This document shows positions 62,928 through 64,000 of a stretch of DNA of 64,000 bases, piece after piece (the stretch's first letter is position 1; each line of letters opens with the position of its first letter). The notes beneath the pieces were generated by a model. The model did no database searches. It was not told the DNA's origin and saw only the letters and a program-made list of their open reading frames with translations. The DNA is from an uncultured Gammaproteobacteria bacterium (lineage in GTDB: Bacteria; Pseudomonadota; Gammaproteobacteria; JACCXJ01), in NCBI GenBank assembly GCA_963764725.1, contig CAVXTM010000002.1, positions 151,136-215,135 on the forward strand, written 5' to 3'. A program made the translations under genes and the position numbers.

Positions 62928-64000
62928 CCCGGCATAGCCGGAACCAAGGTGTTGAATGTACTATTCTGGCGGATGGGCAATAAGAACTGAGATGGGTCGT
63001 CGCCATGAACTCCTTTGTCGAACGCCATCAAGCGAAGATCGCCGCGGTGCTTTGTTGCTTTGACCGCATCGTGATCACTGGCACGCTTCCGGAGATCGCC
63101 CATGCCGAGGCTATGGCCCGGTATTTGGGTGTCCGGGGTATGCGTCTGTTTGACTACCCCCGCTGGGCGGAACCGCTGCGCGAGGCGCTTCGGACCCATG
63201 CCGAGCGGCTGGCCGCTGAGGCTTCGTTGGAAATTGAATTCATCCGTCATTACAAGGCGTTTCGTAAAGAAGAACGGATCAAAGCGATTTTGGCTTTGCG
63301 CGGTGAGCACCCGGGGCTGGTGCATATCTTCTCGGCGATGGAGGCCTGTCCTTCGTATCGCCCCTGGCATGACAAGCTTCAGCATACGACCCGTTTGAAG
63401 TCTACCCCGGGCAAGTGTTTGCATTATTACTTCTATTTCATCGATGAGATCTTCGGGCTCTGTTATGTCCGAGTACCCACCTGGGCACCGTTTCGCCTGC
63501 AGGTCTATTTGAACGGCCATCACTGGTTAGCCCAACGACTGACCAAGACAGGGATCGCCTTTGAGCGCGCCGATAATGCCTTCTTGTCCATCGGCGATCC
63601 CCAACAGGCTCAGGCGCTTGCCGATAGCCTCGATCCCAAAGGCTTGCATCGGCGTTTGGACCGATGGGCGAAAAGCTTCTGTCCTATCTTGGGTCAGTTT
63701 CGCGCTGGTTATCACTGGAGCTGCATGCAGGTGGAGTTGCATCCTCGGCGCGCCAAGCAGGGCCACTCCCTGGCCCTGGCTTTCTCGACCGATGTCATCT
63801 TCCACCGCCAAGCCGATTTCCAACCCCTCTATCAAGCCATCGTGCGTACCGCCGTGCATGCCCTCAAGGCAGAACACGTCGCCACCTTCTTGGGACGCAA
63901 ACTCACCTCGGCCTTCAGCGGGGAGGCCGGTAACGATTTTCACACCCGCATTCAGGGTACACGCATCCGCCATCATATGGGACCAGCAAGCCTCAAGCTC
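62923..64000 (+). mobile_element. Unclassified insertion element inserted at the dedD stop codon; runs off the window
   Basis: End sequence CCTAACCCGGCATAGCCGGAACCAA contains a hairpin and is followed by a long ORF; it replaces the usual cvpA-purF continuation. Confidence 0.7.
63005..64000 (+). CDS. Putative transposase of an unclassified family (partial)
   Basis: Absent from the ORF track because it has no stop in the window. Translates as MNSFVERH..FDRIVITGT..CLHYYFY..YLNGHHWL..DNAF..MQVE..STDVIF. Confidence 0.75.
   Translation, partial: MNSFVERHQAKIAAVLCCFDRIVITGTLPEIAHAEAMARYLGVRGMRLFDYPRWAEPLREALRTHAERLAAEASLEIEFIRHYKAFRKEERIKAILALRGEHPGLVHIFSAMEACPSYRPWHDKLQHTTRLKSTPGKCLHYYFYFIDEIFGLCYVRVPTWAPFRLQVYLNGHHWLAQRLTKTGIAFERADNAFLSIGDPQQAQALADSLDPKGLHRRLDRWAKSFCPILGQFRAGYHWSCMQVELHPRRAKQGHSLALAFSTDVIFHRQADFQPLYQAIVRTAVHALKAEHVATFLGRKLTSAFSGEAGNDFHTRIQGTRIRHHMGPASLKL

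Follow-up and report, generated by a model that had tools for sequence, protein, structure and literature searches.

A 43-nucleotide mobile hairpin repeat, inserted in frame in a gene of another mobile element, as a probable landing site of IS110 elements in a gammaproteobacterium

The Insertion and Its Host Gene

The DNA analysed in our study (the window, 64,000 nucleotides, G000:C2:151136-215135) was found to contain, at the end where contig C2 terminates, the beginning of an open reading frame (ORF) that is enlarged in frame by 45 nucleotides. G000 denotes the source genome of 4.2 Mb, C numbers its contigs, other G numbers other genomes and L numbers further loci. The host ORF was translated as MQVE-LHPRRAKQGHSLALA-FSTD. 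A preliminary description of the window had placed the insert at 63737-63781, with a stem, the loop CTCCC and the start TTGCATC-CT-CGGCG, and the sequence was exactly as it had been noted. The same description had expected homologues to join QVE directly to (Y/F)(S/A)TD, and this was borne out by three paralogues and by 32 of 32 homologues, all of which lacked the 15 residues. The features of the window are collected in Table 1.

Table 1. Features of the window connected with the insertion and with the truncated IS110 element.
Feature	Position	Strand	Basis
Left part of the multi-copy element of about 1.69 kb that carries the host ORF; left end CCTAACCCGG...	62922..64000	+	Full copy searched against the genome with blastn; ends compared
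Host ORF, first 332 codons of 520 amino acids	63005..64000	+	Cut at the contig end; full copies elsewhere in the genome
In-frame insertion of 45 nucleotides, TT plus 43-nucleotide hairpin repeat (core 63739-63781); second TT at 63782-63783	63737..63781	+	Paralogues and homologues without it; one of 31 nhmmer copies
Predicted IS110 target 14-mer: TTGCATC (63737-63743), core CT (63744-63745), CGGCG (63746-63750)	63737..63750	+	Paralogous copy split here on C11; guides match
Hairpin, 8-bp stem CAGGGCCA (63758-63765) / TGGCCCTG (63771-63778), loop CTCCC	63758..63778	+	Fold and compensatory changes
Truncated IS110: left end TGTATC..., 5' non-coding region, first 56 transposase codons	3283..3717	-	82% identical to the complete C11 element
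Bridge-RNA-like stretch in the truncated IS110, with target guides GTGCGTCCT, CGCTGAG; donor guides ACAGTTGCT, GCAAG	3447..3600	-	Aligned and folded to a consensus together with seven relatives
Left flank of the truncated IS110: CTGCATC-CT, same as the repeat start	3718..3726	-	

The paralogues at C10:266802, C16:285917 and C5:129797 contained MQVEFSTD or MQVEYSTD with no insert, and in the DNA of the C10, C16 and C13 copies GTGGAG was followed directly by TTCTCGACC, exactly 45 nucleotides being absent. A tblastn search of the genome with the fragment found five full or contig-cut copies with the 45 nucleotides (99-100% identity) and several broken copies; two copies of 90% identity, on C10 and C16, were 45 nucleotides shorter, and one at C5:129797 had 54% identity. 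Database relatives of the host protein numbered 7819 among 8000 scored candidates; the best 120 matches had 500-513 amino acids each and none had 520. A gap of 15 columns was present at the insert position in 15 of the 15 aligned relatives, and all 32 aligned homologues read MQVE followed by (F/Y/L)(S/A)TD, as judged from the lengths and consensus in the alignment summary. Of the 15 family genomes surveyed, G000 alone had the insert-bearing allele (eight intact copies and one split in two), though repeats may be missing from draft assemblies. The 45 nucleotides were thus confirmed as a genuine insertion into the host gene.

The host ORF of 505 or, with the insert, 520 amino acids was the sole long ORF of an element of 1.69 kb, of which about 13 whole or partial copies with differing flanks were found. 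Copies such as C1:192785-194474 had the ends CCTAACCCGGCATAGCCGG... and ...GGGACTAA and no obvious terminal inverted repeats. The element may represent an undescribed insertion sequence (IS) family, and its product is tentatively named a transposase, solely because no other long ORF is present in this multi-copy element. The host protein had no Pfam or NCBIfam match. Its AlphaFold2 model (33 sequences) had a mean predicted local distance difference test score (pLDDT) of 56.6, falling below 50 over residues 239-358, the insert included. Foldseek of this poor model against the PDB gave no match at E <= 0.001, with a weak winged-helix (MarR-like) likeness at the C-terminus only. The family of the 505-amino-acid protein is very large, many of its members lie on contigs of about 1.7-2 kb, and some database records name its members MarR-family regulators.

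The Repeat Family and Its Mobility

The repeat was found to have a core of 43 nucleotides, composed of GCATCCTCGGCGCGCC, AAG, the hairpin and then CTGGCT, and to be flanked on both sides by TT, sometimes CT. The stem can be extended by AAG/CTT with one bulged G. No terminal inverted repeats were present, the 5' end being GCATCCTC and the reverse complement of the 3' end AGCCAGGG; the internal hairpin was the only inverted repeat. Across 20 distinct copies from several genomes 88% of the cells were paired, and none of 500 shuffles attained the observed covariation score. At two pairs of the hairpin both partners had changed together, GC becoming CG in 6 rows and CG becoming AU or UG in 4, and it is these compensatory changes across copies, rather than the folding energy, that support conservation of the hairpin.

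The preliminary description had proposed a search of the genome and its relatives for the motif, which was found to be multi-copy and, as described below, occupied by IS110. The 13-mer TGCATCCTCGGCG occurred 16 times in the genome, 7 of them outside the host gene, and the exact 14-mer TTGCATCCTCGGCG was present 13 times in 4.2 Mb (once in the window) against about 0.03 expected by arithmetic. A nhmmer profile of the distinct copies found 31 copies of the repeat at E <= 1e-3 in G000, in 13 contexts as told by their flanks. These were the 505-amino-acid gene (9 copies), both arms of a 155-bp miniature inverted-repeat transposable element (MITE) with 18-bp terminal inverted repeats (4), an IS5-type transposase gene (4), an IS91-type transposase gene with Y2_Tnp and Zn_Tnp_IS91 domains (3), pseudogenes (NF047646) of the tyrosine transposases associated with repetitive extragenic palindromes (REPs), called RAYTs (3), the 3' end of cas1 (2) and dnaE2 (1), together with five further contexts, and apparently non-coding DNA was among the locations. 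The earlier suggestion that the repeat sits inside mobile-element genes therefore holds for three other transposase families, but the repeat is not confined to such genes, as its copies in dnaE2, beside cas1, in the MITE and in apparently non-coding DNA show.

The core was 43 nucleotides long, of the form GCATCCTCGGCGCGCC-AAG-hairpin-G-CT(T), in 19 of the 31 copies, 42 in 5, 44 in 2 and 41 in 1; one copy had 37 (a variant with a 6-nucleotide deletion) and three, of a long form enlarged within the loop of the hairpin, had 81. The long form resembles the short form with about 38 nucleotides added in the loop, an addition that may have arisen by gene conversion or by the nesting of another unit. 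Copies of the repeat were also found nested in the second-hairpin loop of long-form copies, at GC-TT-CG; nested or tandem copies occur at L039, L041, L042 and G000:C12:197131-197190. The MITE, of about 155 bp with the terminal inverted repeat AGAGCTTGTGAAAAAATC (for example C15:262243-262390 and C18:206502-206645; ten repeat-free copies were aligned and more are present in the genome), has a CGCG-TT-CCG site in each arm that is used by the 43-nucleotide repeat, and in related genomes the repeat is carried by this MITE more often than by anything else.

A 22-nucleotide pattern of the repeat (at most one mismatch) was found in 15 of 61 genomes, namely in G000 and in every one of the 14 further family genomes, from three genera; the tally of 14 is based partly on unpublished genomes. 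It had 2 to 44 matches per related genome and was absent from the 46 genomes of other families of the class; a reversed control pattern gave no matches. The genomes flagged as unpublished were G001, G002, G005, G007, G008, G009, G010, G012 and G014, and the public or unflagged support came from G000, G003, G004, G006, G011, G013 and the records L045-L048.

In our study, we found that the repeat moves into N-TT-C sites, because empty paralogous sites exist and because an orthologous site in dnaE2 is empty in some genomes and filled in others. Paralogous empty sites were available for five contexts, the 505-amino-acid gene, the MITE, the IS91-like gene, the RAYT and the IS5-like gene (GAG-TT-CTC, GCG-TT-CCG, ACT-TT-CAT, ACG-TT-CAC and GCG-TT-CTT), all with TT followed by C, and the filled sites contained the 43-nucleotide core with a dinucleotide on each side. 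The flanking dinucleotides were TT/TT in most copies and CT/TT in one RAYT copy. In the clearest case, that of the single-copy gene dnaE2, the orthologous site was empty, reading GGCA-TT-CTCGATG, in 7 genomes (three of the same genus) and filled in 4, with 45 nucleotides in two (G008 and G002), 59 in G003 and 83 in G000; both 45-nucleotide alleles and three of the seven empty sites (G001, G010 and G009) come from unpublished genomes. By its motifs we take the gene to encode the error-prone polymerase of an imuA-imuB-dnaE2-like cluster. The TT or CT on both sides of the core suggests either a 2-nucleotide duplication or a 2-nucleotide crossover core, and the sites with CT/CT whose empty paralogues are of the TT type fit a crossover core better than a duplication.

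Frame preservation was explained by the modal insertion length (43 + 2 = 45 nucleotides) together with the survivorship of insertions. The preliminary description had imagined a tiny, frame-preserving mobile repeat; the repeat proved to be multi-copy, but insertions of 43, 44, 46 and 83 nucleotides also exist, some of them disrupting genes, and preservation of the frame is not a property of the element. The 505-amino-acid gene, the IS91-like gene and the dnaE2 genes of two genomes had received 45 nucleotides and kept their frame, whereas insertions of 44, 46, 59 or 83 nucleotides put the IS5-like gene, two RAYT copies and the dnaE2 genes of G000 and G003 out of frame. The 83-nucleotide long form at G000:C8:3766-3850 shifts the frame of dnaE2 and divides the gene into two ORFs. 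In the IS91-like gene, variant alleles differed by 3 and 6 nucleotides and kept the frame, as would be expected if an intact frame is selected for. All six reading frames are open across the repeat, which was read in different frames and strands by different hosts (LHPRRAKQGHSLALA, RARARDWPCLARRGC, ESQGQG...), with no conserved peptide.

IS110 Elements and Their Target in the Repeat

A complete IS110 of 1154 nucleotides was found on C11 inside the 45-mer of another copy of the 505-amino-acid gene. Its junctions read ...GTGGAG TTGCATC-CT / TGTACTTC...ACAGTTG / CT-CGGCGCGCCAAG..., and the halves of the split gene overlapped an intact copy by exactly 2 nucleotides (CT), so that the core is present at both junctions and the insertion was precise. 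The unbroken target string was TTGCATCCTCGGCG, and the donor junction would be ACAGTTG-CT-TGTACTT. The element matched PF01548 (84 bits), PF02371 (65 bits) and NF033542 (226 bits, cut-off 140). Its 5' non-coding region contained TTGCGTCCT, which repeats the left target and the core except that a G replaces one A and would give a G.T wobble with the bottom strand, and CGCCGAG, whose reverse complement, CTCGGCG, is the core followed by the right target. Farther along came ACAGTTGCT, which corresponds to the right end together with the core, and GCAAG. When eight related sequences were folded to a consensus, the target guides lay opposite each other in an internal loop between conserved stems. 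Judged by these sequence features, which are all present except for an Rfam match, C11-type elements are assigned to the bridge-RNA IS110 family.

The right guides and right flanks were found to covary: CGCCGAG with CT-CGGCG (C11 and L045), CCCGCAG with CT-GCGGG (L046) and GGGTGAG with CT-CACCC (L130 in G001 and L131 in G014, both unpublished genomes). The left guides tracked the left flanks likewise across these five related elements, and in L131 ACAGTTG was changed to ACGGTTG in the donor guide and the right end alike. The left flank YTGCRTC-CT was present in 9 of the 9 loci of the subfamily with a visible left flank, namely C11, the window, L045 (the same place as L127), L126, L128, L129, L137, L139 and L140, in at least five outer contexts that include both MITE arms. 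Right flanks were visible for C11 and L045 only, and both run on into the rest of the repeat; L045, a public metagenome-assembled genome record, is the second complete occupied repeat. Occupied sites from unpublished genomes were L128 and L137 (G008), L129 (G002), and L139 and L127 (G010). The idea that the repeat serves as a landing pad for IS110, as REPs do for IS621, is thus upheld by the copy on C11, occupied at TTGCATC-CT/CGGCG, and by more such sites in related genomes.

The window itself was found to contain a truncated IS110 on the minus strand. The letters at 3718-3725 are AGGATGCA, the reverse complement of TGCATCCT, and adjoin the end of this element; the sharing of this flank with the 14-mer, which the preliminary description had pointed out, was confirmed. 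Its further statement that the 14-mer pairs with the guides 60 kb away with one mismatch and two wobbles was reproduced by hand for the guides of the fragment against the 45-mer at 63737. The right guide of the fragment, CGCTGAG, matched the repeat variant CTCAGCG of two RAYT-borne copies. The fragment matched NF033542 weakly (E 4e-7, under the curated cut-off), and a genome-wide Pfam search gave 14 DEDD_Tnp_IS110 matches, none of them on contig C2, because only 56 codons of the transposase are kept in the window.

Other IS110 subfamilies of G000 use other targets. One of them, with an open frame of 323 amino acids and four copies (C18:74209, C18:199671, C9:87723 and C10:250376), has a right end that adjoins palindromes of the CTCTCCC/GGGAG type, with which it may form a second pair of IS110 and targeted repeat in G000. 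L131 and L138 belong to a related IS110 lineage with the left flank ...AAGATC-CT, within sequence translating to CP(Q)CGG..L.IIAAIEDP, which may be the C-terminal end motif of IS91-type transposases; if this is true, it would be another IS110 lineage targeting a rival transposase gene.

Several other elements lie near the truncated IS110. A group II intron reverse transcriptase/maturase (TIGR04416, 331 bits) was found at 3718-5200, with the truncated IS110 adjoining its 5' side; its N-terminal part is apparently in another frame (ORFs 3645-3953 and 3950-5116). This intron had no Rfam intron RNA match and no other full-length copy in the genome. Two fragments of an IS1380-like DDE transposase were present at 2-352 (34.0 bits to PF13701, cut-off 34.7) and at about 3180-3290; the second, known by a shared motif only, ends where the IS110 fragment is cut, and this corner of the window is therefore a pile of broken mobile elements. 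An ISKra4-like transposase ORF of 473 amino acids was found at 5238-6656 on the minus strand (NF033572, 190 bits against a cut-off of 205).

Interpretation and Comparison with Known Systems

The best explanation, to which we give a probability of roughly 85%, is that the 45 nucleotides are a copy of a small mobile repeat, lying in frame in the gene of another mobile element, and that their first 14 nucleotides are a landing site of IS110. A non-autonomous, family-specific repeat would have inserted at a G-TT-C site in the ORF of the 1.69-kb element; the host ORF would have stayed open because the modal insertion is 45 nucleotides and the repeat is open in six frames, and the insert-bearing allele would then have multiplied to at least 9 copies in G000. 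TTGCATC-CT-CGGCG would be the cognate target of an IS621-like IS110, whose left guide TTGCGTCCT is predicted to pair with the bottom strand with one G.T wobble and whose right guide CGCCGAG would pair with the top strand CTCGGCG. The recombinase would exchange strands at the CT core, placing the IS between TTGCATC-CT and CT-CGGCG. Our sequences show the insertion, the repeat family with its mobility, the occupied sites and the joint variation of guides and flanks directly, whereas we infer RNA-guided strand exchange at the 14-mer from published work on IS621. In IS621 the 5' side of the guide pairs with the bottom strand over 8-9 nucleotides and the 3' side with the top strand over 4-7 nucleotides, the core being included in both (PMC11208160), and the guides found here have a matching geometry.

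A number of results weigh against this explanation. The folding energy of the hairpin is ordinary for its composition (-10.5 kcal/mol, z = -0.89, 35 of 200 shuffles folding as well). The IS110 in the window is a dead fragment that has lost its right flank, and in G000 only one of the 13 exact 14-mer sites is occupied and 12 are free. The bridge-RNA identity draws on covariation among only eight related sequences, in which RNAalifold found no compensatory stem pairs, and Rfam 15 gave no match at the gathering score in the whole window and none at E <= 1 in window 1-7000. The flanks of the repeat also resist a simple account, since they are CT/CT in the IS91-like and IS5-like genes though all empty paralogues have TT, and the filled dnaE2 site, with TT as its left and CT as its right dinucleotide, fits no single simple flank model. 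No mobilising enzyme was pinned to the repeat in G000, where RAYT genes are present and none is flanked by it. Finally, the related genomes are mostly fragmented drafts, several of them unpublished, so that copy counts are lower bounds, and as kin they are non-independent.

The preliminary description had allowed that the 45 nucleotides might instead be an excision footprint, left by IS110 or another element. The insert does start with the same 8-9 nucleotides as the IS110 flanks, but insertion of IS110 duplicates CT only, and the occupied copy is bounded by CT/CT; the 45-mer pre-exists and is not made by excision, because removing the IS from this copy restores it intact. Furthermore, the IS110 ends (TGTAC... 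and ...ACAGTTG) have no sequence in common with the 45-mer, no convincing element with termini equal to its halves was found in G000, the 43-nucleotide unit is found in 13 unrelated contexts of which 12 are without IS110, and excision of IS110 is described as scarless (PMC11208160). A footprint is accordingly hardly credible. It is also very improbable that the host protein gained the 15 residues through selection for a function and that the guide match is incidental. The insert allele is the most abundant one in G000 (8 intact copies of 99-100% identity against 3 without it) and the alleles of the IS91-like gene keep the frame, as such selection would predict; yet the same DNA is read in varied frames and strands elsewhere, and the unit is DNA rather than protein because no peptide is conserved among the hosts, while the guide match is backed by physically occupied sites.

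Two further accounts concern what moves the repeat. RAYT of Escherichia coli cleaves at CT, and the repeat, with YT dinucleotides at both ends and a short conserved hairpin with compensatory changes, might be an ordinary REP or REPIN moved by a RAYT tyrosine transposase, its genic copies being merely tolerated in dispensable multi-copy IS genes. Its limitation to one bacterial family is as reported for the vertically inherited REPIN-RAYT systems (PMC3116915; 10.1101/2022.05.22.493013), and RAYT-type genes (NF047646) are present. Against this stand the low number of about 31 copies, their occurrence as singlets with no inverted doublets, the many intragenic copies and the apparent 2-nucleotide duplication, which is unexpected for HUH transposition; moreover no RAYT locus is flanked by the repeat, and nearly all RAYT copies are broken, three of them containing it. 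We regard this account as possible, at somewhat less than even odds. The repeat could alternatively be a minimal donor for an IS110-type or other 2-nucleotide-crossover recombinase acting in trans, moving as a small single-stranded circle with TT/CT as the crossover core. This would agree with the same dinucleotide class on both sides, and the CT/CT sites with TT empty sites and the mixed TT/CT flanks are as a heteroduplex core would give; the abstract of a 2026 preprint reports that IS621 mainly excises as a single-stranded circle and that 'half-match', donor-only recognition leads to off-target insertions. A scan for bridge RNAs with donor guides for CCTGGCT-YT-GCATCC found none near the IS110 genes of G000 but, with 5960 genome-wide matches, was too permissive to carry weight. 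The target sites share N-TT-C only, far short of a 14-nucleotide guided target, and we consider a minimal donor unlikely. As to the enzyme, a single-strand HUH or RAYT-type one is a tentative candidate, a 2-nucleotide-crossover recombinase acting in trans is doubtful, and the remainder falls to something else. It is a more speculative and improbable thought that the 43-nucleotide unit is one of the smallest mobile DNAs, a single-stranded micro-circle with a TT/CT crossover that is moved by a trans-acting bridge-type recombinase with donor-only recognition and seeds IS110 landing pads, including some in rival transposon genes; an IS110 lineage would then have specialised on these pads, making a nested parasitism of three levels.

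The search for a mobiliser covered both parent elements and RAYT loci. No convincing autonomous parent with the repeat's halves as its ends, 0.1-6 kb apart, was found in G000, and the 'far' pairs were 2-mismatch noise. There were 29 NF047646 and 6 PF01797 matches in G000, with no repeat copy beside the intact genes, and no 16-mer with at least five occurrences in the genome flanked the RAYT-like loci C1:11368, C18:52150 and C11:171051. In k-mer profiles of five Y1-transposase loci, one 18-mer repeat was present on both sides of two C12 loci, which from their size we take to be of the IS200 type. The RAYT genes occur in many copies, most of them interrupted by stops or frameshifts (e.g., C4:7469, C18:703447 and C10:385), a state that seems unusual, as RAYTs are described in an abstract as single-copy transposases. 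A 2.5-kb IS91-like element (G000:C7:100601-105600, with copies on C10, C9 and C15) has a 334-amino-acid ORF upstream of its Y2 transposase; by its motifs this ORF may encode a tyrosine recombinase.

The repeat was not classed as REP/REPIN, MITE or Rickettsia palindromic element (RPE), because each of these has a defining feature that it lacks. It is a short imperfect palindrome kept as a hairpin, as a REP is, but it is not extragenic, having copies in the 505-amino-acid ORF, in IS91-type and IS5-type transposase genes, in RAYT pseudogenes and in dnaE2. Like REPIN-RAYT systems it is a short, lineage-specific hairpin repeat that persists across genera in a genome with RAYT-type genes, whereas it occurs as singlets with no adjacent inverted pair, in tens rather than hundreds (31 copies in G000), with no RAYT flanked, with intragenic copies and with an apparent 2-nucleotide duplication. 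An apparent duplication as in MITEs is seen, TT being present once in empty sites and on both sides when filled (CT in some copies), but terminal inverted repeats are absent. RPEs are palindromic repeats that lie in frame in protein genes and leave the ORF open, as some copies of the present repeat do, but they are about 150 bp long with a conserved peptide (PMC10969869); the present unit has 43 nucleotides, is read in several frames without a conserved peptide and has out-of-frame copies.

Among IS110 elements, the likeness to IS621 and REPs includes a recombinase with DEDD and Transposase_20 domains, a 5' non-coding RNA with a target loop that repeats the left target and core on its 5' side and complements the core and right target on its 3' side, a CT core at both junctions and a target at the edge of a short hairpin repeat (PMC11208160). 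The transposase in our study is probably only a distant relative of that of IS621, and the target is a mobile 43-nucleotide unit, often intragenic and frequently within other mobile elements. ISPpu9 and ISPpu10 of Pseudomonas putida are described as IS110-family elements that insert into one conserved hairpin repeat (PMC12288879), and ISPpu10 is reported to require, in addition, a hairpin beside its target (10.64898/2026.03.19.712850). Their targets are described as intergenic 'safe zones', whereas the hosts found here include coding sequence, and the ISPpu10 abstract places the stem-loop 5', whereas here the hairpin is 3' of the 14-mer. IS4321 and IS5075 of the IS1111 group, reported to target terminal repeats of Tn21-family transposons (cited in PMC11208160), are also IS110/IS1111-type elements with a specific target inside other mobile elements, but that target is the transposon's own terminal repeat and not an independent micro-element invading the genes of other elements. 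IS110 on REP-type repeats (IS621, ISPpu9 and ISPpu10) and in-frame palindromic repeats in Rickettsia genes were thus already known. What is new is the combination, in which the target itself is a mobile 43-nucleotide unit that leaves TT on both sides and invades coding sequence, including that of four other kinds of mobile element. The string CATCCTCGGCGCGCC was not found in the published papers searched, and this is the sole basis for regarding the repeat as not in print.

The system has three levels of nesting, an IS110 in a micro-element in an IS or MITE. It provides, in one genome, a natural bridge-RNA target system with a guide RNA and 13 exact 14-mer sites (12 free and 1 occupied), in which CGCCGAG and CGCTGAG, the two versions of the guide, match the repeat variants CTCGGCG and CTCAGCG respectively. 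The repeat invades transposase genes (IS91-type, IS5-type, RAYT and the 505-amino-acid family), and IS110 can therefore travel with other mobile elements and inactivate them. As dnaE2 shows, the unit can lengthen a chromosomal protein by 15 residues in some strains and break the gene in others. The finding raises the question of which enzyme moves a 43-nucleotide element that leaves TT on both sides, and it bears on how IS110 elements find 'safe' sites and on the need for a hairpin next to the target.

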